Shown here piece after piece: positions 10,474 to 58,869 of a stretch of 64,000 nt of DNA; the first letter of the stretch is position 1, and each line of letters begins with the position of its first letter. The notes beneath the pieces are model-generated. The model searched no databases. It had not been told where the DNA came from and worked only from the letters and a program-made list of their open reading frames with translations. Source of the stretch: Octopus vulgaris (taxonomy: Eukaryota); assembly GCA_951406725.2 (NCBI GenBank), contig OX597818.1:59396001-59460000 (forward strand), given 5' to 3'. The position numbers were made by a program, and so were the translations under genes.

Positions 10474-11992
10474 TAGTGCTCCATCGCTTTTAGCGGTAGA
10501 TTGGATCCGAGACCGGCCGCGATAACTGAATTTCCGCGAAGTAGGGACACGAAATTTACAGTATTTATTTAACGTGTATTTGTACTTTTAAAACTTTTCC
10601 CTGTACTGTTAACAACCCACCTATTACAGTAGTCTATTAATAAGAAGGAAAACTGTTAAGCAATAACATTTTAGATTTAAAAAAAATAAAGATTGTTACT
10701 GATACACAGGCCAGATTACAAAATAGAAAGCTGTGATTCGTCGTCTCTCTCCCCATTGCACCAATCACAGCCCGTCTTAAGTTCAAATACCCCTACATAT
10801 ACTTTTTTGCTATTTTACGCTCGTTTTGTTGTTCTTAGTCTAGGAAATAATATTTATTAATATTTTAATGGATTTAATGAAATATTTTTGGTGCTCATAT
10901 ATAAATATATATACGAGTGGGTATATATTTATAAAAAAGAAGTTTGAAAACGCCACTATATAAGATAAATTTTAATTTTCTTAGAAATTTTACATGTTTC
11001 GGTTCTTCTTGAAAAAACGAACCTTATCAAAAATATATTTTAAAAAGTTAAGTGTAATACAAAAAGTTCATAATTGTTTCGTACTGGTCGTAGTTGTAGT
11101 AACCGTGGTGGTGGTGGTGGTGGTTGGGTTTGCAGCAGCCCACTGGTTGTAGCAGCAGCAGCAGCAGTGGGGGGGGGCTGTTGATCGTAGTAGTAATAGG
11201 TGGTTGTGGTTGTAGTAGTAGTAATAGTAGTGACCACGGTGGTTGTAGAAGCAGTGGTAGTGGAAGCAACAGTCGTAGTGATCGTGTTGGTTGTGGTAGA
11301 ATTCCATTTTTCTTTTCGGAAGACCAATGTATTGTTTTAACGTTCCTGGCCCAGGGTGTTCAAACTTGGTTCAAAATTCGGACCAAGTTTGAACACCCTG
11401 GGCCAGGAACATTCAAACAATACATTGGTCTTCCGAAAAGAAAAATGGAATTCTACCACAACCACCACGATCACTACGACTGTTGCTTCTATTACTACAA
11501 CTACAACCACCGTGGTCACTACTATTACTACTACTACAACCACAACCACCTATTACTACTACGATCAACAGCCCCCCCCCCCACTGCTGCTGCTGCTACT
11601 GCCACAGCTAAGCTGCTGCAACCAATGGGCTGCTGCAAATCCAACCACCACCACCACCACCACAGTTACTAAAACTACGACCAACAGTCACTGCTGCTAC
11701 TGCTATTTCAGCCACTGACCATTCGGACACATAAGACAGCTAAAAACAACCACGTGGATTCTGTTAAGACCAGTAAGAAACAATTATGAACTTTTTTTAT
11801 TACACTTAACTTTTTAAAATATTTTTGATAAGGTTTTTTTTTCAAGAAGAACCGAAACATGTAAAATTTCTAAGAAAATTAAAATTTATCTTATATAGTG
11901 GCGTTTTCAAACATCTTTTATATATATATATTTAAAATTCGCGAAGTCGTGAATCCGCGATAGTTGAACCGCGAAGTAGCGAGGATCACTGT
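10474..11992. mobile_element. Non-autonomous pogo/Tigger-like (Tc1/mariner superfamily) element with a large internal fold-back
   Basis: Left end ta-tagtgctccatcgcttttagcgg versus reverse of right end ta-cagtgatcctcgctacttcgcgg; TA flanks; subterminal ccgcga motifs at both ends. Confidence 0.6.
10925..11930. repeat. ~1-kb imperfect palindrome centred near 11376
   Basis: ccagggtgttcaaacttggt...accaagtttgaacaccctgg at the centre; arms pair out to tttgaaaacgccactatataagataaa / tttatcttatatagtggcgttttcaaa; right arm has ~85 extra bp (11683-11767). Confidence 0.93.
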
Positions 11993-19869: not shown

Positions 19870-21775
19870 GTTTTGGACCCAATAGGCATTCTGATAGTCT
19901 CGTGCAAGTCTCCCTCTGTACATGTTTATAAATATATATCAGCCCCGCCGATGCCCATATATCTCCCCAAGAAGTTTGTCGCACCTCCCCACCACTAATC
20001 CTCTATAAGACATCTTAGTGGAAATGAAGTCAAACAAGTTTGATGCTGGACGGCAGAGCTGTTGGAGAGCATGGCGACACTCGCGGCACCATTCGCCCAG
20101 CATTGGTCTCTACTTTAACTATGATTGCATTTGGTCAATAGGGCGAGCTGCGGGAAGGCGCATCTCCCAAACGGCGACCGCACCTGTCCACTGTCGTCTA
20201 TGAAACGTTGGAGATGTCGCAGTCTCAGCACATGATAGTGCATCATCAACCATAACATACCCAGCCCTCCAATTAGCGGTTGTTAGTGCCAAATGGATAT
20301 GCCTAACCATTGGAACGCTTCCCTTCTACAAAAAGCGGAAGAGTATGCGTTCCAGTTTCGTGATGGTAGGGTCGGGACAGAACATGATTGTCAGACGGCA
20401 GTTGATGACGAATGTGATGTACGCATTCGCCACCTCAGCCCGACCTATTAGAAATAGTTTCCTCTCGGCCAATTTCTGGGTGAGAGTAGCCAACCTACTC
20501 GTTATCTCGCCCCACTTATTCCCCATTTGGAGGTCTGGACCTAACTAGACTCCGAGTAATTTAACCGGTTTGTTGGCCCAGTTTCCCGCGATGGAGATGC
20601 TGTTGATCGGCATGGGTTGCTTCCGTCCTTTCCCGGTTAATTTTCGCTCCTTTTACCGCTCCTGTTATTTTAATATCCCGGTGACCAGGGCAATAAGCCT
20701 GTGGCTTGACACTATGAAGATGACATCGTCCGCGTATGCAGACACATTCCTTTAATATCCCAGTTCTCGCGAGATGCCCCTTAGCGTCGCGAGATTCTCC
20801 AGTAATGTTGCTAGAGACAATAGATACAGAAGTGACAAGTGGGGGTATCCTTGAGGGACCGAATGCGTGGGGCTAAATGGTCTAGATAGATAACCATTTA
20901 CGCGAACTACCGAGCTGATGCCGCTCTACAAAGCAGCGATCCGACCGCGGAAGATTTGACTGAAATCAGCTCTCCTAAGGACAGCTTCCAAGTAGTGATG
21001 ATCGACCCTAACGAAAGCTTTTGGTTGATCAGCGCCTCACCTAAGTCAAGTTCCTTAACTATCCTGTCTATGATGTAGCGCATGCAAAGGAGCTTGTCAT
21101 AGATTCTTCTGCCTGGTCACAATGCACATTAGCGCCTTATCGACTAGTTTCTCGATGACATGCGCCAAGCGCTCAGCCAGCAAACTTGCCCAAAATTTTC
21201 AAATTATCTACAACGTTTCCCTTGTCTTGTTTCTTGTGTCCTTCTTTTACAGGGTCATCGCTCCTCGGCTCACAAACTCCCGTTTTTGCTTCCAGTTGCA
21301 GTAGAACGTTGCCAAGACGTCTCCAAACAAGTCTGGCATATGAAAATAAAGCTCGTAGGGCAGACTATCCAAGCCCAACGACTTGTATTTCGCGCAGCCT
21401 GCCATCGCATTCCGTACATCAGCGGCTGTAATGAGACATTCGAAACACTCCGCCTCTCTTGCCGAATGCCGTGGCAAGCCATGCAGGTAGGCATTAAAAT
21501 CCACTCTGCGTTTTGACCCATCATTCGTCCCGAACATTCGGGCAAGGTGTTACCGCAAGGCCTCACACATCATTTCGGGCTCGAGTTATTTGTGACCCTG
21601 TTCAAAAACCGAATGGTGGCTTTGTTGATAAGTTGCGCCTCCGCCACCCGTGCATTTCAGACAGCTGCAATTTATTCGTTTGTCAGGGCACAGATTCTAG
21701 CTATTACAACGCAACCTTCGTTCAAGGAATAACCAGGATGCTTTACCCCCTTCAAAATAACATAGCATTTGGCCA
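19870..21775 (-). mobile_element. Decayed Tx1/L1-clade LINE ORF2 (reverse transcriptase region)
   Basis: Reverse-strand motifs GLDSLPYELY (~21365), KAFVRVDHHYL (~21010), VPQG (~20855), AYADDV (20722-20740), LIGRAEVANAYI, LERILFRFL; many stops and frameshifts. Confidence 0.88.
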
Positions 21776-21940
21776 AATGTGAACGTTAGAATAAGTACCA
21801 TACTTTAAAAAACAAGTAGTGTGGTTGATATTCTTGACTAAATCTTTCAAGATGCTGCCCCAACATGGCCGCTATTCAATAACTGAATATAGATTAGAAA
21901 TTTAATATTGTAAATCAAACGAAATTGCTAAATTATTGTA
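21416..21940. repeat. Arm 1 of a 525-bp near-identical inverted duplication (partner 26850-27374)
   Basis: acatcagcggctgtaatgag...gctaaattattgta; mirrored ORFs in the track differ at about one residue. Confidence 0.95.
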
Positions 21941-26849: not shown

Positions 26850-27374
26850 TACAATAATTTAGCAATTTCGTTTGATTTACAATATTAAATTTCTAATCTA
26901 TATTCAGTTATTGAATAGCGGCCATGTTGGGGCAGCATCTTGAAAGATTTAGTCAAGAATATCAACCACACTACTTGTTTTTTAAAGTATGGTACTTATT
27001 CTAACGTTCACATTTGGCCAAATGCTATGTTATTTTGAAGGGGGTAAAGCATCCTGGTTATTCCTTGAACGAAGGTTGCGTTGTAATAGCTAGAATCTGT
27101 GCCCTGACAAACGAATAAATTGCAGCTGTCTGAAATGCACGGGTGGCGGAGGCGCAACTTATCAACAAAGCCACCATTCGGTTTTTGAACAGGGTCACAA
27201 ATAACTCGAGCCCGAAATGATGTGTGAGGCCTTGCGGTAACACTTTGCCCGAATGTTCGGGACGAATGATGGGTCAAAACGCAGAGTGGATTTTAATGCC
27301 TACCTGCATGGCTTGCCACGGCATTCGGCAAGAGAGGCGGAGTGTTTCGAATGTCTCATTACAGCCGCTGATGT
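26850..27374. repeat. Arm 2 of the inverted duplication of 21416-21940
   Basis: Reverse-complement match; contains a Tx1 piece and a SINE fragment. Confidence 0.95.
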
Positions 27375-34514: not shown

Positions 34515-36240
34515 GTAGATAGCGCAGTTTAGAGTATATTATACCTTCGGAAAAATTAGTCTGTTTAAATAAATGATACCTAACTCTGACGAGTATGTTC
34601 AAAATTGTTTTAATATTGCCAGAAATTCCTTCCTGGTAATTCAGACTGAAAACACTTGAATCATCTTTTGAATGATTAGAAATTAGATATGATTTTGGCG
34701 AAAAAACTTACTCAAAATTAATTAGTGCCACAACGTATTCTAATTTGCGATAACATATCTTCAGGAAACAGACGGTTGTCAGTCAGTGATGTTTATATCA
34801 TAAAATAGATTTATAATAAAATTGCACTCAAATAATGAGGTGGAGTACAACGATAAATTTACGATGTGTAAACCCGTTTTTTATGCGTTCAGTATCAAAA
34901 GAAATAAAACGCGCCACCATATTGTTAAATGGGCTAATGCTAGTAGCAGCACTTTGTCCATTTTGTACCCACACTAAAATGTTTCTCTCGCCATTAGACG
35001 CTAATGGAATCAATAAAAATTTTACTTTTCATCTGGATCGATATTTTTTCCTTTCTTTTATGCTTTTCTCTCTTTCAAAAAAAAATGTAGCTAAAAGGTT
35101 GAAGGGAACGGAAAACGACGACCAGTAGATAAATCGGTATGAAAAACACAGTAAAATGTTACTGGCGTGCAAAGAAATAATAATAAATAATTCAATGAAA
35201 TTGATGGAAGTTTTCTATTAAACAAAAAGACAAAAATATATTTTTGACCTAACGTTTACAGTGAGTTAGGAGATTATTGTTATTAAGATATTTTTTATTT
35301 GATTTCTTCAAATAAATCACGTCAAGTAATATTTATTAACGCCAACCGCTTTTACAAATGGAATTTCATATTTGTTATAAAGACAAAAAATTATGCCATT
35401 ATCTGTATGTTTTCTCTCAGAAAATGCTAAATATATTTTTGCTTTATAATAATTGCTTTCTAATTTAAGAACAAGGGAACCAATTTTGAAGGGAGGAGTT
35501 TTATTTCAGGAATGTTCAATGTCCTTGCAAGAGTCAGTTCGTCTGCTGTTTCTCGCATGAGGGATTTCATAGAATTTCCGTCAATGTCCGAAATATTTGT
35601 AGATATAGATATTACACTTTAGTCGTTCCTAATATGGAACTATCATGTCACAAAAATCTTCAGGATTTGAAATTATTTCCAATGGGGTTGTTGATTAATT
35701 TTGAAATACACCTATACCATATTTTTGTTTGAGTAGCATAGTTAAAACCTTATAAATGTTATGGAGCATTAGTAATGATGTAACTAAATGAAGGCAACCA
35801 GTTCTATTCAAAGTATAATTACAGTTAACGGGTAATATTTTCCCAAAACTAGTTTGGCAGAACATGGTTGAACAGCTCAAGGATTTGTTCTGAAAATAAT
35901 AACAATGAAATTGAATGGGTATCAATTTTAATCCATAGAGTCTTGTTTGACACTGTAGCTACAGTATATGAAATAATTACTGTGCAACACCGACGTCTCT
36001 AAGAGTTTTCCTAATCTGCTAGAAATAGCAGTCAAATTTTCGTTTAATTGTAAAGAAAGAAAAGTTACACTAGATAGGAGAATTTTAATACATGGATTCT
36101 GAAACCAACGGAATTGCTACAGCTGGATTGATACTCATCATGACTATTTACAATCAAAAGAGACTGCATGGAATCATATCAGAGAATTTAGTAGACGGAA
36201 CTCTGATTGGAATATATTCAGGCATGTATATATATATATA

Positions 36241-36470
36241 TAAAGTTAATCCAAACAAGAAAGCACAAAAAAAAACACAACAACGCGAGGACGTGGAACA
36301 ATTATAGTATTATTGGAGGCTCAGGAGAGAAGGAAAGAAGGAGGGTTTAACGTTTCGAGCAGAGCTCTTCGTCGGAAACATAGGAGAAGGAAAGATCTAG
36401 AGAACGGAAGACGGGAAAGAATCGCCAACGGTACACACGCGGTCACATTTTGAATGACTGGAAGGAAATA
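36241..36470 (-). mobile_element. TA-flanked Penelope-type short element with hammerhead-like motif (36345-36379)
   Basis: Reverse strand gttt-CCGACGA-a-gagc-tct-gctc-GAAA-cg-TT-aaac. Confidence 0.7.
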
Positions 36471-36539
36471 TATATATATATGCTAATCGGTTTCAGCTTC
36501 AAGCTTTGCCCATCCTGAGGCATAGTTTTGCTACGCTGC

Positions 36540-37390
36540 TACTATTGTGAGCCTCCACTGATAAGTGGCATTTGGTGAATAAAGGAGTTTGATGTTGCTC
36601 TATCCCCATTTGCGCCTCCTGTCGCGAGGTAGGGTCATCTAGGACTCTCGACAGTTAGAGAATCAGTTTTGATTTTAAAACACATACAACCACTTTGTGT
36701 AGGTCTCTGGGTTTTTGAGAGAATATTAAGAAGCTATGGGCCCCTGAAACCCAGGCTGTTGCACTAACTGGTCCTGAAACACGATGGCGTTGTTAGAATG
36801 TTTGGTATTATGCAGTGGTAAACCGTTCTGGCCTTTGTGTAGATTTCAATGTCAAAATCTGGTACCATCCATTCCAGGATCTTCCAGATGTATATTACTG
36901 CATATTTCTCCTGCCTTTGCTCCAGGGAGTGAGAGACTTAGTTGTGTCAGCGTATCCCAGTACCTGAGCTGTTGCAATGAGACGATCGTCTTTGTGAAGC
37001 TTTTATGGTCCGCTGTTATGTCTATACTGTGGGGTAACCATAGTTGGAAGGAGTAGTCCAGGGCAGTGAGGACGGATATTCTCCAGATAACCATCATGAT
37101 TTCCTCCTCTGTGATTTTGATGTATCTCAAGATCCAGCTAGCCAGCTGTCTGCACTTTGTCGCCATCTTAGTAACGTGTACTTGGTAATGTGCACTTGGA
37201 AAGAGGTGCCATCCCTCATATCACTTACCAGGTCATGCACTGATTTAGGTTCTGGGATTGCAATGCAATCGTCCTTGGGCCAGTGAACCCTGTAAGTTTT
37301 TCGTTCAGTTTTGGGTGCTGGTAGCGAAGGGTTGGATTTTTCCAGCATTAAACTGCATGTTATCCTCAGGTGGACTCCGAAGCACACCTG
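36540..37390 (-). mobile_element. Decayed CR1/L2-like LINE 3' region
   Basis: NMQFNAGKIQ, LASWILR, LDYSFQLWLPH, YWDTLTQLSL resemble post-RT motifs (MxFNxxK, LDYCSQLWSP, YWERL). Confidence 0.75.
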
Positions 37391-38927
37391 CCTGGCTGTT
37401 ATATGAAGCCACAGACACAGCTTCGGGTGTCAATCCGGGATAAAAATCCCAATTCAGTGCCTCTGAGTCAGTCCATCGTCGTCGACAATATCGCTCTGGC
37501 AACTACTTTTCAATGACGTGTGGGAATGACGTCCCACAGTTTCTAGGCTTGCATCCTATTGAACAGCCTATGCGGAAGAGGATACGGCTCACTACAACTT
37601 ATACAACACGGGGACCATCATAGGTGCGGCTTGTGTTAGAGTGATGATTCTGTGTGCATTGGACGGACTGTTTAACCAACGACACATACAAAAAACGGAC
37701 ACGTTATCTTCCTCAGAGTTTATCTTACGAAATAATCTTACGTTCAATGGAATATTCATTATAAGTCAGTATCCATCTTATTAATAACAGACGGCCATTA
37801 TGAACAGAGTAAGACTCCAAATAACTGCCCTATTCATTTTAGCTGAGGGTTAGAGCCAACTGAATGTATTCCGCTAAATTCCTCGAATATTCTTTGTTCA
37901 TTACGAAAATATATATTCCAAATTTATTTTGTGTTGCGATACATTAACTCGGAAGACATAAGCGACTGCGAGAAATGTAAGATTATTTTACTCCAACTCA
38001 ATCATATATAAATTGCTGAAATTGTAATAAATACGTGGCAGGCATTTTGAGGTGGAAACGTTCAGTTATTTCAACCGACTCTATTTGACTTATACCGAAG
38101 ACCAAAGGAGTTGGAAATGAATCTATGACCAATGAGATGTGAACTCAAAATGTAGAAAACGAAGCTATGATTAAAAGCTTCCACTACAGACTTTATCTTC
38201 GTTAATGTTTATCATAGTGACATATCTTTATGTATAATGGAATATTTCTTATAAAACTGTATCTGTTTTTATCATGCACATCTGCACAATCGATTTCTAA
38301 GGTTCGCTGACTAGTTTATTTAATATGCTTTTTTCGATAGTAAACACATTTTAAGAGATATTCTGTTTACGCGTATTACTACATAAAACTTTAAAATAAG
38401 ATCGTAACGCATATAAAACAACCACAGCAACGATAATCTTTTACGGTATACGATATCATTACGACTTTTGATATCACGCATTGCTAGAAGGGTTTATTTA
38501 TGCAAAGAAGAGACACGTATCTTGTATAGGTTGTAATCTGATATATTCATTGTGTATATTTTTCATTGCAAAATAGATACTCCTAAAATTGTTGCATTAA
38601 TTGTTGTTTTTCCTTCTATCATACGACAATTGTATTGTTACAATGGCCAGCAATCCATGAAATAAAATAAGCATTTCAATGCAGTCCCACCACATTTTTC
38701 TTTTTTATTGAAGTTGTGATTGCTAAACAGAATTTAGATTTATTTATTTAGAAATGTTTGGGATTACAAACAAACAGAATTTTTTTTTTTACACAAGTTT
38801 GTGTGTTGGTATATGTGCGCGAATATATATAGATGCGTATGTATCATTGTACAAAAAAAAATATTTCTTTCTATACACATACACACACGCATACATAAAT
38901 ATATAAATATTTATGTATATATCTGCG

Positions 38928-38975
<48 letters not shown>

Positions 38976-39007
38976 TATATATATATATATATATTTGTGT
39001 ATATACT

Positions 39008-39038
<31 letters not shown>

Positions 39039-39101
39039 CTGTGTATTCTTATATAAATATATATATATATATGTGTGCATGACTGAGCATGTGTACATAT
39101 G

Positions 39102-39149
<48 letters not shown>

Positions 39150-39195
39150 TATATAATACATAATACTGTATGTAATAACATACACATTCATATCT

Positions 39196-39239
<44 letters not shown>

Positions 39240-39243
<4 letters not shown>

Positions 39244-39616
39244 ATTATATAATAGACCACAGTATCGGATTTTGAATTACATCGCTGATAACAATGCACC
39301 TTCTTTATTTCTTTCGAATGATGTCATGACCTGAGTGCGTGAACTCTTTACGCACACTCACACACAAACATATCTATAACTATCAGGCTATATACATATA
39401 TGAATAATTACATACACACACACATATATACGTATGTATATATATATAACGTGATTATATAATAGATAACACTATCGAATCTTGAATTACATCGCTGATC
39501 AAAATGAGCCTTCTTTATTTGTTTCGAATTATACCATAACCTGTGTGCGTGAACGTTTTAAGTACACACACAAACATATCTATAAATATCTAGCTATACA
39601 CATATACGTATACATG

Positions 39617-39620
<4 letters not shown>
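39240..39620. repeat. Old tandem duplication, ~210-bp period
   Basis: cgtgattatataataga...ttgaattacatcgctgat...ccttctttattt...gtgcgtgaac begins at both 39240 and 39450. Confidence 0.85.
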
Positions 39621-39681
<61 letters not shown>

Positions 39682-39754
39682 CAATATATATATAGCGGCC
39701 GTTACATTGAAGGAGTCATTCTACTGTTTTAGTACCTTTGGATTATTGCAGAAA

Positions 39755-39844
39755 ATCCATTCTGAAGAGGAATGTGGTTAGTAGAGTTTATATTTTGGGA
39801 TATTCTTTATTTAAAACCTGATTCCGAAACGCGCGTCTATGGAT
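39755..39844 (+). ncRNA. Minimal type-I hammerhead ribozyme with canonical core
   Basis: atccat/atggat stem I; CTGAAGA (39762-39768); ggaat/attcc stem II; GAAA; palindromic acgcgcgt stem III; GTC cleavage triplet ending at 39837. Confidence 0.8.
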
Positions 39845-40056
39845 AATCGGATATTGATTGATTTTCGTTACGTTACCCTCTGCCTGGATGAATAAGATTC
39901 AGGTATTATGGTTTCTCTAGTAGACCTTTTTTTAAGTAGAAGAAATGGCTTAGATTTTGGCTGCTATTTCTGAATAGTATGTGGTGATGCATTTCTTTTG
40001 CTGATCCCTTAATATTAGTATATATATATATATATATATATATTAGATATTTCAAT

Positions 40057-40246
40057 CACCTGAAAATTGACTGTAACTCGAATTTTTACGAATTGGACAG
40101 CCATGAAACGATCGTAGTGTTATACTCATTATCTGTTTTTAATAATTTTGATATATATTTAAAATAATATTAATTAATTAATCTTATGTATTGGCTTAAG
40201 TTTTTCATTGTATGATTTGCCTAATAGTGGTTTTATCTCTAATTTA

Positions 40247-40250
<4 letters not shown>
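40057..40250 (+). mobile_element. Penelope-type terminal repeat with hammerhead-like motif (40057-40119)
   Basis: cac-CTGAAAA-t-tgactgt...acagcca-t-GAAA-cgatcg-TA-gtg; tail shared with 25065-25100. Confidence 0.6.
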
Positions 40251-40299
<49 letters not shown>

Positions 40300-40323
40300 G
40301 TGTGTGTGATTGTGTATAGAAGA

Positions 40324-40771
40324 ATATATTAATAAAAGAATTCCAACCTTGTCTGATTTTCACGTTTTATTTACAATCTTATAATGATATATTATAAGAT
40401 AATATATTATAATTGAATAAAATAAAATGAAATAGTAGAATGTTAAATATTCATTCTGATTGAACTAGTACTTTCATGCATTGAATTTTGCAATCTTCGG
40501 GTTCATGTAGTAGTGTTGACAGTCATGCTTCACAATTTTTGACTGTCCCTAAATTGTGAAGTCAAAAATTGTGAAGCATGACTGTCAACACTACTACATG
40601 AACCCGAAGATTGCAGAATTCAATGCATGAAAGTACTAGTTCAATCAGAATGAATATTTAACATTCTACTATTTCATTTTATTTTATTCAATTATAATAT
40701 ATTATCTTATAATATATCATTATAAGATTGTAAATAAAACGTGAAAATCAGACAAGGTTGGAATTCTTTTA

Positions 40772-40780
<9 letters not shown>
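40324..40780. repeat. Near-perfect palindrome (221-bp arms, 15-nt spacer), each arm with a hammerhead-like motif
   Basis: Arms 40324-40544 and 40560-40780, one mismatch seen; tgaac-CCGAAGA-t-tgca...tgca-t-GAAA-gtac-TA-gttca at 40599-40643, mirrored at 40461-40505. Confidence 0.93.
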
Positions 40781-40822
<42 letters not shown>

Positions 40823-40824
40823 CG

Positions 40825-41640
40825 ATGTAATCCATCGTAACTGCCTCGCTGGGATGCGTTGGGATGGACACTTACTTCGATTGAAGATGACACGTACGGA
40901 CTTGTTTCGAAGGAATTGCACGTGGTAAACATCCGAAACAGAAACCTTAAAAAATGTTTTAGGGACGTCGTCAGAAAAAGCTTTATGGATCATAAGGTGG
41001 ATATTGGTGACTGTGAGCAAATGATGGAGAATAGATTGGTTTGGAAACAAGTGTTGCACGATGGTTGTGAAGCAAGTGGAACGTGCAATCGGACGTACCG
41101 TCATTATACGAGCACATCGGAGGCGCAATGGCCCAGTGGTTAGGGCAGCGGACTCGCGGTCATAGGATCACGGTTTCGATTCCCAGACCGGGCGTTGTGA
41201 GTGTTTATTGATCGAAAACACCTAAAGCTCCACGAGGCTCCGGCGGGGGATGGTGGTGATCCCTGCTGTACTCTTTCACCACAAATTTCTCTCACTCTTA
41301 CTTCCTGTTTCTGTTGTACCTGTATTTCAAAGGGCCGGCCTTGTCACTCTCTGTATCACGCTGTATATCCCCGAGAACTACGTTAAGGGTACACGTGTCT
41401 GTGGAGTGCTCAGCCACTTACACGTTAATTTCACGAGCAGGCTGTTCCGTTGATTCGGATCAACTGGAATTCTCGTCGTCGTAACCGACGGAGTGCTTCC
41501 ATCCATACGAGCACATCGCAAATAGGTCTTCACTTCAATCCCAAACACTTTCCGGCCTCAAAGTATTTGTAACATCTACTTTAGCGTCTGTTTTTCAAAA
41601 GCTGAACTTCCTACTCATAGGAGATCTCTTGACAGCATTT
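40825..41640 (+). mobile_element. Decayed RTE/BovB-like LINE 3' end interrupted by a SINE
   Basis: KKCFRDVVRKSFMDHKVDIGDCEQMMENRLVWKQVLHDG resembles RTE C-termini (KRYKD...W...A.DR..WR). Confidence 0.6.
41119..41504 (+). mobile_element. SINE family A, full length
   Basis: TSD atacgagcacatc at 41106-41118 and 41505-41517. Confidence 0.95.
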
Positions 41641-41674
41641 AGTAATTGAATAGATGGCCTTTCATAAAGAAGCA

Positions 41675-41719
<45 letters not shown>

Positions 41720-41764
41720 CACTACAAATTTTTATATACTTCTGTCAGCACAAACACATAATCT

Positions 41765-42168
41765 TTCTTCTTTTTCTTCTTCTTCTTCTTCTTCTTCTTC
41801 TTCTTCTTCTTCTTCTTCTTTTCTTCTTCTCCTCCTCCTCCTCCTCCTCCTTCTGCTTCTTCTTTTTCTTCTTCTTCTTTCTTCTTCTTTTTCTTCTTCT
41901 TCTTCCTCTACTGCTACCTTTTTTCTTCCTCAATTTCTTCTACTCCTTCTTCCTTCTCCTCTTCTTCTTCGTCTTCTTCTTCTTCTTATTATTATTATTA
42001 TTATCATTATTAATCATCATCCTTATCATCATCATCATCATCATCATCACCACCACCAACACCACCACCATCATCATGATCATCATCATCATCATCATCA
42101 TCTGCATCATCAACACCACCACCACCACCACCACCACCACCACTACCACCACCACCACCACCACCACC

Positions 42169-42202
<34 letters not shown>

Positions 42203-42264
42203 TCATCTTCATCATCAACACCACCACCACCACTACCACCACTACCACCACCACCGCCACCACC

Positions 42265-42296
<32 letters not shown>

Positions 42297-42364
42297 TCTT
42301 CATCATCAACACCACCACCACCACTACCACCACCGCCACCACCACCACCACCACCACCACCACC

Positions 42365-42397
<33 letters not shown>

Positions 42398-42448
42398 TTC
42401 ATCATCAACACCACCACCACCACCACCACCACCACCACCACCACCACC

Positions 42449-42503
<55 letters not shown>

Positions 42504-42638
42504 CCACCACCACCACCACCACCACCACCACCACCACCACCACCACCACCACCACCACCACCGCCACCACCACCACCACCATTCATGATCATCATCATCA
42601 TCATCATCATCTTCATCATCAACACCACCACCACCACC

Positions 42639-42672
<34 letters not shown>

Positions 42673-42690
42673 TCATCATTACTACCACTA
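41765..42690. repeat. Compound triplet array (TTC)(CTC)(ATT)(CAT)(CAC)n with higher-order units
   Basis: Marker cttcatcatcaacaccaccacc recurs near 42207, 42298, 42396 and 42611. Confidence 0.95.
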
Positions 42691-43308
42691 CTTCATAGAA
42701 GCAGTCTGACACGGAGTCTTTCATGCATTTCGTGAGTGCAACTAAGCAACTAAGCAAAGCGTTTTCTTAGTTAATAGTTTTACGTTTTACTTTTCGTATA
42801 AAAACCAGCTACGACCGAAATGCAACTTCTATTTAGAAAACGCCAACAGCAGCTGCAGTGTAAATCTCATGAGAATACATTTCATAGAATCAGGCAGTTT
42901 CTTTCCAGTCAGAGAGAGAATGAAGACAGTTTCTTTCTCTTTATGTGTGTGACTTTCTTTCTCTCTCTCCTTCTCTCTCTCTCTCTCCTTCTCTCTCTCT
43001 CTCTCTGTTTCACACACTCTTTTCTCAATATAGTAACGATCAGAAATATATGTTAAAGAAGACAAGAAAAGCAAATTATTTTTTTTTAATATTGTATAAA
43101 ACTGAATGTTCTCATGTGTAAAGTAACAAAATTGTCGGGTTGAAATATGTATCGCAGTTTCTGGTGGCAAATTTCTTTTGAAAATTTAACATACTGCATG
43201 AAGCATTTGCAACATTCAACATTTTACAAGAACAGATACGCACACGGGATAATATTCAAGCACACACAGAGATGTATAAATGTGCGTATATATGATATAT
43301 ATATGTAT

Positions 43309-43545
43309 ACTCTCTTTTACTCTCTCTTTTACTTGTTTCAGTCATTTGACTGCGGCCATGCTGGAGCACCGCCTTTAATCGAGCAACTCGACCCCGGGAC
43401 TTATTCTTTTATTTTTTTTAAAAGCCCTGTACTTATTCTATCGGTCTCTTTTACCGAACCGCTAAGTAACGCGGACATAAACACACCAGCATCGGTTGTC
43501 AAGCAATGCTAGGGAGACAAACACAGACACACAAACACACAATCG

Positions 43546-43597
<52 letters not shown>
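43309..43597 (-). mobile_element. SINE family B, 3' half (other half at 46790-46974)
   Basis: ctcttttacttgtttcagtcatttgactgcggccatgctggagcaccgcc...acacac(at)n; stops at the Helitron CTAG. Confidence 0.9.
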
Positions 43598-43598
<1 letters not shown>

Positions 43599-43994
43599 TA
43601 GCAGTATCGCCCGGCGTTGCTCGGGTTTGTAAGGGAAATAACTATATAAGCATTTTTAGAGAGTTATAGCAAAAATATAGCCAAAAAATCCATTAAAAAT
43701 GGAAAAAAATGATGGTAAAACTTTTCTTTAAATCGTTGACTCATCGTAGACACTTTTAGAGGGTCACTTCCCTTATATTAAAAAAAATATGCATTGAAAT
43801 AGAAAAAAAATGATGGTAAATTATTTTTTAAATCGTAGACTCATTGTAGACGCGCGCTAATACCCAGAAGGGCTCGATATGAATCACGACTATAAGATAC
43901 TCGGTTTTGGTTAAACTGCACCGCAAAATGTAGGAGTAGTTAGGAATCTAAATCGGAGTAGACAGACACACAACCTTTCTTTTATATATAAAGA
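43598..43994 (-). mobile_element. Non-autonomous Helitron, type 1
   Basis: Minus strand A|TCtttatatataaaag ... hairpin cccgagcaacgccggg, cgatactgCTAG|T; no TSD. Confidence 0.9.
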
Positions 43995-46410
43995 TATTCC
44001 ATTATACATAAAGATATGTCGCTATGATAAACATTAAGGAAGATAAAGTCTGTAGTGGAAGCTTTTAATCATAGCTTCGTTTTCTACATTTTGAGTTCAT
44101 ATCTCATTGGTCAAAGATTCAATTTCCAATTCCTTTGGTCTTCGGTATAAGTCAAATAGAGTCGGTTGAAATAACTGAACGTTTCCACCTCAAAATGCCT
44201 GCCACGTATTTATTACAATTTCAGCAATTTATATATGATTGAGTTGGAGTAAAATAATCTTACATTTCTCGCAGTCGCTTATGTCTTCCGAGTTAATGTA
44301 TCGCAACACAAAATAAATTTGGAATATATATTTTCATAATGAACAAAGAATATTCGGGGAATTTAGCGGAATACATTCAGTTGGTTCTAACCCTCAGCTA
44401 AAATGAATACGGCAGTTATTTGGAGTCTTACTCTGTTCATAATGGCCGTCTGTTATTAATAACATAGATACTGACTTAGGAATATTCCATTGAACGTAAG
44501 ATTATTTCGTTAAGATAAACTCTGAGGAAGATAACGTGTCCGTTCTTTTGTATGTGTCGTTGGTTAAACAGTCCGTCCAATGCACAAAGAATCATCACTC
44601 TAACACAAGCCGCACCTATGATGGTCCCCGTGTTGTATAAGTTGTAGTGAGCCGTATCCACTTCCGCATAGGCTGTTCAATAGGATGCAAGCCTAGAAAC
44701 TGTGGGACGTCATTCCCACACGTCATTGAAAAGTAGTTGCCAGAGCGATATTGTCGACGACGATGGACTGACTCAGAGGCACTGAATTGAGTTTTTATCC
44801 CGGATTCACACCCGAAGCTGTGCCTGTGGCTTCATATAACAGCCAGGCAGGTGTGCTTCGGAGTCCACCTGAGGATAACATGCAGTTTAATGCTGGAAAA
44901 ATCCAACCCTTCGCTACCAGCACCCAAAACTGAACGTACATTACTAAAAACTTACAGGGTTCACTGGCCCAAGGACGATTGCATTGCAATCCCAGAACCT
45001 AAATCAGGACCAGTTAGTGCAACAGCCTGGGTTTCAGGGGCCCATAGCTTCTTAATATTCTCTCAAAAACCCAGAGACCTACACAAAGTGGATGTATGTG
45101 TTTTAAAATCAAAACTGATTCTCTAACTGTCGAGAGTCCTAGATGACCCTACCTCGCGACAGGAGGCGCAAATGGGGATAGAGCAACATCAAACTCCTTT
45201 ATTCACCAAATGCCACTTATCAGTGGAGGCTCACAATAGTAGCAGCGTAGCAAAACTATGCCTCAGGATGGGCAAAGCTTGAAGCTGAAACCGATTAGCA
45301 TATATATATATATTTCCTTCCAGTCATTCAAAATGTGACCGCGTGTGTACCGTTGGCGATTCTTTCCCGTCTTCCGTTCTCTAGATCTTTCCTTCTCCTA
45401 TGTTTCCGACGAAGAGCTCTGCTCGAAACGTTAAACCCTCCTTCTTTTCTTCTCTCCTGAGCCTCCAATAATACTATAATTGTTCCACGTCCTCGCGTTG
45501 TTGTGTTTTTTTTTGTGCTTTCTTGTTTGGATTAACTTTATATATATATATATACATGCCTGAATATATTCCAATCAGAGTTCCGTCTACTAAATTCTCT
45601 GATATGATTCCATGCAGTCTCTTTTGATTGTAAATAGTCATGATGAGTATCAATCCAGCTGTAGCAATTCCGTTGGTTTCAGAATCCATGTATTAAAATT
45701 CCCCTATCTAGTGTAACTTTTCTTTCTTTACAATTAAACGAAAATTTGACTGCTATTTCTAGCAGATTAGGAAAACTCTTAGAGACGTCGGTGTTGCATA
45801 GTAATTATTTCATATACTGTAGCTACAGTGTCAAACAAGACTCTATGGATTAAAATTGATACCCATTCAATTTCATTGTTATTATTTTCAGAACAAATCC
45901 TTGAGCTGTTCAACCATGTTCTGTCAAACTAGTTTTGGGAAAATATTACCCGTTAACTGTAATTATACTTTGAATAGAACTGGTTGCCTTCATTTAGTTA
46001 CATCATTACTAATGCTCCATAACATTTATAAGGTTTTAACTATGCTACTCAAACAAAAATATGGTATAGGTGTATTTCAAAATTAATCAACAACCCCATT
46101 GGAAATAATTTCAAATCCTGAAGATTTTTGTGACATGATAGTTCCATATTAGGAACGACTAAAGTGTAATATCTATATCTACAAATATTTCGGACATTGA
46201 CGGAAAATCTCTGAAATCCCTCATGCGAGAAACAGCAGACGAACTGACTCTTGCAAGGACATTGAACATTCCTGAAATAAAACTCCTCCCTTCAAAATTG
46301 GTTCCCTTGTTCTTAAATTAGAAAGCAATTATTATAAAGCAAAAATATATTTAACATTTTCTGAGAGAAAACATACAGATTATGGCATAATTTTTTGTCT
46401 TTATAACAAA
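43995..46410 (-). repeat. Captured inverted copy of 35371-38244 with a ~466-bp internal deletion
   Basis: Junction aaatcaggacc near 45005 joins donor 37240 to 36777 through ctga microhomology. Confidence 0.95.
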
Positions 46411-46789
46411 CTAGCAGTATCGCCCGGCGTTGCTCAGGTTTGTAAGGGAAATAACTATAAAGCATTTTTAGAGAGTTATAGCCAAAAAATAGCAAAAAAA
46501 TGGAAAAGAAATGATGGTAAAAATTTTTGAGAGTTAAAAAAGGTGGAGTTGCGTCCCCTAGACGGTCTGTGGTTTGGGTTTCTGATTCTCGACCCCATGT
46601 CGAATTTATCGATTTTTTTCAAAACTGGGGGAACTTTTCAAAATTTTCGCTGCGTTAGTTTTGAATTATGACATTGGGCTATGTGTGTGTCAAGTTTCAT
46701 CAGAATCGGTTGAAAGCCGTGGTCAGAGTGAGGGTACGAGAAAACAGACACACAGTAAACGCACAGACAAACTGCCGTTTATATAGAGA
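46411..46789 (-). mobile_element. Non-autonomous Helitron, type 2 (same 3' end, different 5' part)
   Basis: Minus strand A|TCtctatataaacggcagtttgtctgtgcg ... cctgagcaacgccgggcgatactgCTAG|T. Confidence 0.88.
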
Positions 46790-46974
46790 TATATATATAT
46801 ATATATACATATATATGACGGGCTTCTTTCAGTTTCCATCTACCAAATCCACTCACAAGGCTTTGGTCGGCCCGAGGCTATAGTAGAAGAAACTAGCCCA
46901 AGGTGCCACGCAGTGGGACTGAACCCGGAACCATGTAGTTGGTAGGCAAGCTACTTACCACACAGCCACTCCTG
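46790..46974 (-). mobile_element. SINE family B, 5' half (continues 43309-43597)
   Basis: (ta)n-gacgggcttctttcagtttcc...cacagccactcctg, the sequence that follows the TA tract in intact minus-strand copies. Confidence 0.9.
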
Positions 46975-58476: not shown

Positions 58477-58869
58477 CTAGCAGTATCACCCGGCGTTGCT
58501 CGGGTTTGTAAGGGAAATAACTATATAAGCATTTTTAGAGAGTTATCGCCAAAATATAGCAAAAAAATGCATTAAAACTGGAAAAAAAAATTATGCTAAT
58601 TTTTTTTTTAAATCGTTGTCTCATCGTAGACATTTTTAGAGAGTTACTTCCCTTATATAATATCGAAAAAATGCATTAAAATGGAAAAAAAATGATGGTA
58701 AATTTTTTTTTAAATCGTAGACTCATCGTAGACGCGCGCTAATACCCAGAAGGGCTCGATATGAATCACAACTCCCCGGTTTTGGTTAAACTGCACCGCA
58801 AAATGTGGGAGTAGTTAGGAATCTAAATCGTAGGAGACAGACACACAACTTCACTTTTATATATAAAGG
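58477..58869 (-). mobile_element. Non-autonomous Helitron, type 1 (solo copy)
   Basis: Plus strand a|ctagcagtatcacccggcgttgctcggg...cacaacttcacttttatatataaagg|t; collinear with 43598-43994. Confidence 0.88.

Follow-up and report, generated by a model that had tools for sequence, protein, structure and literature searches.

The locus described here is a real and unusually legible Helitron capture, in which an inverted copy of a host segment lies between two Helitrons (H1 and H2) while its donor, 5.7 kb away, carries no Helitron at either end. Helitrons are major movers of host DNA, and empty donors of this kind are a known open puzzle of Helitron capture. The explanation that we tentatively place first, giving it a little less than an even chance, is that H1 was already resident at the recipient site and that H2 lay on a donor allele since lost; transposition of H2 would have read through into the segment, been cut at the strongest downstream target and been inserted at the 5' junction of H1. 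The weights attached to this and to the other mechanisms discussed below are judgements and were not computed.

Donor and product both lie within the window, that is, the whole stretch of 64,000 nucleotides that was analysed (G000:C5:59396001-59460000, from an assembly of 2.8 Gb in 227 contigs). The features, in window coordinates, are:

43309..43597, plus strand: SINE left half, ending in a CA/TA tract; the recipient site
43598..43994, minus strand: H1, a non-autonomous Helitron of 397 bp (TC...hairpin-CTAG)
43995..46410, minus strand: inverted copy of the donor segment 35371-38244, placed by base-level alignment
45536..45554, no strand: internal TA tract of the copied segment, seen in the sequence
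46411..46789, minus strand: H2, a non-autonomous Helitron of 379 bp from a younger subfamily, its 5' end possibly reaching out to 46793
46790..46974, plus strand: SINE right half, beginning in the TA tract
35371..38244, plus strand: donor segment of 2,874 bp, a mosaic of old repeat fragments and low-copy DNA
35370..35382, plus strand: left donor junction, an empty Helitron target, A|T and then ATAAA at +7 to +11
38244..38256, plus strand: right donor junction, an empty Helitron target

Base-level alignment of 43995-46410 to 35371-38244 confirmed the anatomy and the coordinates of the original prediction. Read on the minus strand, the block runs A|TC-H2-CTAG, T-segment-A and TC-H1-CTAG|T, within the TA tract of one SINE; read on the plus strand, the order is SINE half, H1, inverted copy, H2, SINE half. 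The shape is that of a composite, with an upstream 5' end, host DNA and a downstream 3' end in one orientation, and the insert sits between two complete, different elements, not inside one. The structure works like an end-bypass capture, but a donor occupied by both Helitrons, from which it could have been copied as a unit, was not found among the assembly donors and the contigs sampled. The copy departs from the donor by 26 substitutions in about 2,400 aligned bp, four 1-bp indels and one of 3 bp, a 9-bp insertion and a 466-bp deletion. Because a second product copy upstream keeps most of the 466 bp, this deletion postdates capture; the earlier figure of 2.4 kb thus describes the copy as it now stands, whereas the captured piece was originally 2,874 bp. 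Each donor junction is an A|T without a Helitron, and each reads ATA|T, giving a 4-bp ATAT microhomology at both ends that overlaps the A|T target. The donor segment contains 7 CTAG and 39 CTRR motifs, all of which were passed over.

Both elements are indeed Helitrons, as had been proposed. They have 5'-TC and 3'-CTRR termini, a subterminal hairpin some 10 nt inside the 3' end, insertion at A|T without target duplication, and many copies, which are the canonical tests for non-autonomous members of the group; exact 3' ends of their family number 29,196 in the genome. H1 and H2 represent two subfamilies with about 120 bp of 3' end in common, and since they share only their ends a rolling-circle concatemer of one element is ruled out. 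The subterminal hairpin of H1 is intact (predicted -4.5 kcal/mol); the predicted end fold of H2 is weaker (-2.7 kcal/mol) and competes with an alternative predicted fold. H2 lacks the first TCTC of the family, and where it begins is uncertain by 4 nt: almost every one of the 29 copies nearest to it has an extra TCTC at the start, which reads here as TA tract. Copies of the same family also occur at window positions 58477-58869 (89% identical to H1) and 63700, and both are followed by the target motif described below.

The SINE at the recipient site is presumably an octopus-like one from its appearance. Rejoined around the TA tract, its halves match the arrangement in 14 of the 17 unlinked SINE copies nearest to them. 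The left half shows 8 substitutions in 217 aligned bases relative to the majority of unlinked copies and the right half 6 in 158 relative to the majority of 14 copies, so that both are some 3.7-3.8% diverged from the nearest unlinked copies. The claim that the two halves come from one SINE is upheld by these figures, and by its age the SINE could have been the host of H1. An inversion with staggered breaks is ruled out, the halves being collinear. The flank beyond the right half has itself as its sole near-identical match.

Are the two Helitrons as old as the copy between them? H1 is much older. Set against the majority of the 27 copies nearest to it, H1 has 17 differences in 394 positions, of which 11 are common to at most one of the 27; the resulting 11-17 private changes compare with 2.1 expected from the segment duplication (P = 1.5e-5 for 11), or with 4.3 on the assumption that the product bears every one of the 26 segment differences (P = 0.004 for 11). 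The best unlinked match to H1 among the best 40 of 3,353 candidates, which were those scored, is 94.5% identical, and it is unlikely that a close copy was missed by this search. H2, by contrast with the roughly 2 differences expected, has 5 in 379 (4 events) relative to the majority of its 29 nearest copies, with P = 0.06-0.15 on the first rate and 0.39-0.58 on the second, all-on-product, rate. H2 is therefore of the same age as the duplication or slightly older, which mildly favours prior residence. Its best match elsewhere is 98.7% identical, and none of the scored matches is a near-identical parent. The age of H1 speaks against the view that the whole block arrived as one unit, and the clean rejoining of the SINE halves is no proof of it; H1 was likely in the SINE before the capture.

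Besides the pair in the window, the assembly has another two copies of the donor and another two, partial, of the product; they lie 11-62 kb upstream, around a gap. Each of the three assembly donors is empty at both junctions, in agreement with what was first reported for the one in the window. All three products carry H1 and only that of the window reaches H2, so that the H1/segment junction is seen three times in the assembly and the H2/segment junction once. A genome search with both halves of the segment returned local copies only, and no unlinked copy with both Helitrons in place; the paralog bearing both elements that had been suggested as donor was thus not found, the local copies all being empty.

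Some 62 kb of the region recurs upstream (window -67920 to -5417; G000:C5 about 59328000-59390600) at 96-98% identity, as far as a 100-N gap. After the gap come 10.7 kb at 99.4% identity that end inside the captured segment, at the equivalent of 45250, with a GATA-rich junction. The 62-kb duplicate is likely a retained second haplotype, and the 10.7-kb duplicate is likely a tandem duplication or a mis-join. A second local inverted duplication was also observed in the window (21416-21940 and 26850-27374; 525 bp, 99.8% identical, 5 kb apart), with microsatellite at its junctions and no Helitron ends, and it is present in the upstream duplicate as well. Being free of Helitrons, it indicates that local templated copying happens here by other routes too. 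A 600-bp imperfect palindrome (88%) at 11085-11683 is possibly a MITE or a foldback element.

Evidence from other samples came from short-read contigs of four of the 24 runs listed: X2 (organism A, a different sample), X4 (organism B), X18 (organism C) and X19 (organism D). In the segment X18 and X19 are about 1.2% from the product, at uniform single-copy depth. Alignment of their contigs reaches 43994, beyond which come 332 letters in X18 and 238 in X19 with no alignment to H1. At 46410 the alignment of X2, X4 and X19 contigs breaks off, and the 850-880 letters that follow are not H2. These run-ons are probably empty donor flank. On this small sampling the left donor junction is empty in the informative contigs of three of the four runs (the fourth stops short of the junction), and the right donor junction in those of two, the others being uninformative. 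Since H1 is older than the splits between these species, an H1 fixed at the donor should occur in organisms C and D, yet it is absent. Footprint-free somatic Helitron excision in maize is described in PMC10095026. That an old H1, fixed at the donor, was later excised precisely is nevertheless disfavoured, because contigs of C and D cross the site without H1, and precise excision of both Helitrons, one of the routes offered in the original prediction, cannot account for the empty sites in relatives. The start of the SINE is present in X19 contigs, where repeat contigs hide whether H1 lies inside.

None of the runs covering them carries three of the product alleles in the left half, and X2 contigs hold a product-identical path at 44306-44440; the product is therefore not a simple assembly copy. 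Depth in X2 is about 2x over 44039-45351 and 1x, with donor alleles, over 45567-46410. From these depths X2 seems to have a product without the left part and H2, and this loss would most simply be a deletion between TA tracts with one end-point at 45536-45554. Growth of the product in two steps, with the short X2 form as intermediate, was rejected in favour of a later deletion because no difference in divergence was seen between the two sides of the internal TA tract (7/872 versus 19/1532, p=0.41); between the two sides of the 466-bp deletion there is one (9/1403 versus 17/1005, p=0.016). In X4, parts of the right half of the segment, over 44067-45279, stand at 4-13x the depth of the left half, a possible amplification, and there is no cover at 44517-44810.

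The nature of the donor ends was examined with a target matrix. Nearest matches supplied 56 unlinked insertions (27 H1-like, 29 H2-like), from which 19 in microsatellites were dropped, and the matrix was built from the remaining 37. The flanks of the 56 have A at -1 in every case (H2 flanks being trimmed of the TCTC start) and T at +1 in 55. Beyond plain A|T the family target is A|TNNNNNATAAA, with ATAAA at +7 to +11 (A 29, T 27, A 27, A 28 and A 27 of the 37). Among 8,900 plus-strand positions in 34600-43499, the right donor junction ranks 2 (score 10.76) and the left donor junction ranks 5 (9.58), and between 35371 and 43499 no target-like site is stronger than the right one. Only 0.018% of the 38,091 AT sites in 164 kb reach the score of the right junction and 0.15% that of the left; on leave-one-out, 4 of the 37 real targets reach 9.5. 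The earlier description of the donor ends as A|T sites is therefore made far stronger. Because the 5' junctions of the elements themselves score only 1.4-5.5, the donor ends are target-like and not origin-like. The idea that the target mimics the element's own 5' end was rejected on the same scores and because the ATAAA is out of register. For Helraiser a preference for AT-rich DNA is reported, chiefly on the 3' side (PMC4778049, section 10), and the Helraiser logo in that paper may be similar to the motif found here. With both ends top-ranked for the target motif, their sequence makes it very likely that transposase cut both.

Two of the mechanisms considered are weaker than the others. In the first, the copy would owe nothing to Helitron chemistry: a repair-driven templated insertion would have used the 4-bp ATAT microhomology to enter the TA tract beside H1, and H2 would have come later. 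The ATA|T reading of both donor junctions suits such an origin, as does the Helitron-free 525-bp inverted duplication, its halves 5 kb apart in the same window. Repair would however need chance to have placed the right donor end at a top target (a score reached by 0.018% of AT sites), the join to fall exactly at the first base of H1, and H2 to hit exactly the other junction; we strongly disfavour it and regard it as very improbable. In the second, the segment would have moved alone, between cryptic sites, to the 5' junction of H1, with H2 inserting afterwards at the new left junction, which would still be a top target after the move. Empty donors would then follow without any lost allele, but the left site is unlike a TC origin, a later hit at exactly the left junction is by our own estimate a ~1% event, and H2 is not younger than the segment copy. 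This order of events is improbable too.

The 5' junction of a resident Helitron is a real landing site. Genome-wide, 422 of the 29,196 exact 3' ends directly adjoin a Helitron 5' start in head-to-tail fashion (CTAG|TC, for example L112-L121), and since nine of ten inspected abutting pairs are at most 93% alike, these are not fresh tandem copies. At 30 of 160 loci the Helitron 3' end lies in a CA/TA tract, with few in a complete SINE.

Composites of a similar outline have multiplied in this genome. L163/L170 (about 50-1514, in element orientation) and L167/L171/L179 are multi-copy composite Helitrons at unlinked sites, each with a Helitron-like 5' start, captured repeat fragments amounting to about 0.7-1 kb and a full H1; their upstream and H1 parts are similarly diverged. 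The unlinked loci L169 and L176 (1-1110) have more than 1 kb in common upstream of the Helitron, SINE included, and represent either a larger composite or a segmental duplication; the same upstream piece begins L167. That multi-copy composites ending in a full H1 exist here raises the prior for a classical composite. In that case both Helitrons would have stood on one unfixed donor haplotype, later lost; transposition would have started at H2, bypassed its terminator and ended at the hairpin-CTAG of H1, and the block would have inserted into an intact SINE. Only documented steps are called for (HelibatN539, PMC4224331, section 15), the two top target sites become two ordinary insertions, and the intact hairpin of H1 and weaker predicted fold of H2 agree with the roles assigned to them. 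What makes us doubt it is that H1 would have had to stay unfixed through 3-4% divergence, though the relatives differ by only about 1.2%, or alternatively have been newly copied from an old element that the assembly lacks. In addition, organisms C and D have no H1 at the donor, and the 5.7-kb proximity is left unexplained. We consider a classical composite unlikely, while keeping it among the serious candidates.

Our preferred reading, a read-through from H2 joined to a resident H1, would proceed as follows. H1, whose age is shown above, would have inserted in the TA tract of the SINE, its probable position at that time. H2 would then have inserted on one allele at 35370|35371, a top target. 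Transposase would have nicked the 5' end of H2, peeled the strand beyond the H2 terminator and nicked the A|TC junction of H1; the TA-tract 3'-OH would have joined the TC of H2, which is a junction present in the product, by a chemistry assumed from Helraiser. The peeled strand would next have been cut at 38244|38245 and its 3'-OH A joined to the TC of H1, the far end thus being cut at a target-type A|TNNNNNATAAA site in place of hairpin-CTAG. A strong target may serve as a cryptic terminator in this way, since the normal terminator always precedes the 3' half of a target. The H2-bearing donor allele would later have been lost via recombination and drift, which would be why all sampled donors are empty. 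Later deletions would finally have trimmed the product, by the 466 bp seen in the window and, as depth suggests, by the left part and H2 in X2.

This read-through is consistent with an H1 older than the duplication, with top targets at both donor ends, with the use of 5' junctions as landing sites, with X18 and X19 donors that lack H1, and with a SINE old enough at 3.7%. About 11.7% of Helraiser events involve read-through, and its ends can form away from CTRR and lack a hairpin (PMC4778049, section 11). On the other side, H2 was not seen at the donor, neither in the three assembly donors nor at the left junction in X2, X4 and X19 contigs, and a mostly open-access literature search gave no description of Helitron termination at a target-type site. 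Nor was any relative seen to have H1 in its SINE while lacking the segment, an arrangement that repeats would hide in these contigs. The multi-copy full-H1 composites also count against it, as does the lack of a second case: a scan of 564 kb, of low power, revealed no second locally duplicated flank starting at a junction, whether among 18 other 3' ends or among 9 other 5' ends. Moreover, since Helraiser showed no local hopping (PMC4778049, section 10), the preferred model needs a reaction in cis for the 5.7-kb proximity.

The original prediction had also listed sequential strand transfers at AT sites, and these stay in contention, although not in the lead, as a target swap in which neither Helitron was ever at the donor. 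Resident H1 would start a local hop, its 5' end joining A38244, while an incoming H2 would join its 3' end to T35371 and its 5' end to the TA-tract 3'-OH; the strand between the two nicks would move to the SINE and the donor would be refilled from the other strand. Single-strand transfer with donor resynthesis is described in PMC5876387. Such a swap would put both ends in target register (scores 9.6 and 10.8, versus 1.4-5.5 for the elements' own 5' ends), would make every junction a canonical half-reaction and would account for the cis proximity; all sampled donors are empty, and the age of H2 is compatible. It would however require two elements to act together, in the same place and at the same moment, with three nicks in all, and H2 has no near-identical parent (best 98.7%). 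The scan of 564 kb gave no further case among the 18 other 3' ends and 9 other 5' ends, and no precedent for target swapping by Helitrons was found in the same, mostly open-access, literature search. We hold it to be a doubtful but real competitor.

How does the locus compare with known systems? End-bypass or chimeric capture is described in section 15 of PMC4224331 (Feschotte and Wessler 2001; Tempel 2007; HelibatN539). In the bats treated there, 26 captures have no related Helitron at the parental locus, three have one and 20 are unassessable; for the empty parents the authors could not separate "never there" from "not fixed", and one composite with both progenitors in place is documented. 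Our locus resembles these in having one Helitron's 5' end, host DNA and another's 3' end at A|T without target site duplication, and in the progenitors missing from the parental locus, as in those 26 cases. It differs in its downstream element, which predates the capture and is missing at the donor of relatives, in having two donor ends that score measurably as top targets, and in the 5.7 kb that separate donor from product. The 3' transduction of Helraiser (PMC4778049, sections 11 and 12) likewise involves kilobase read-through, hairpin-less new ends, one Helitron inserted against the end of another and an AT-rich preference strongest on the 3' side, but the alternative ends given in those sections are CTTG, CTAC and AATG, and the sections describe neither termination at a target-type site nor joining to a resident 5' end. 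In alternative transposition of Ac/Ds (PMC4270019) the ends of two separate, nearby elements also flank a local segmental duplication; that system, however, is a cut-and-paste hAT one with re-replication and repair junctions, whereas all junctions here are single-strand A|T joins. Filler-DNA capture (PMC6544945) also has short microhomology at both donor junctions, though at our locus this coincides with the A|T target; the insert here differs in lying between two different, complete elements and in having both ends at target-motif sites. Li and Dooner are cited within the comparison papers, of which PMC13286980 is a further one.

End-bypass capture and empty donors are known; what this single locus adds is a pair of donor ends that lie at target-type sites. 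The extended target motif can mark the sites of transposase cuts at a donor even where no element remains, and the ages of the elements order the steps. Under both leading models one captured end forms at a target-type site and not at a terminator, and if ends are of this type the boundaries of a capture become predictable from sequence. Read-through that joins an older resident Helitron could help to explain why capture sources are free of Helitrons, and target swapping, if true, would be a way of capturing DNA that inherently leaves the donor empty.
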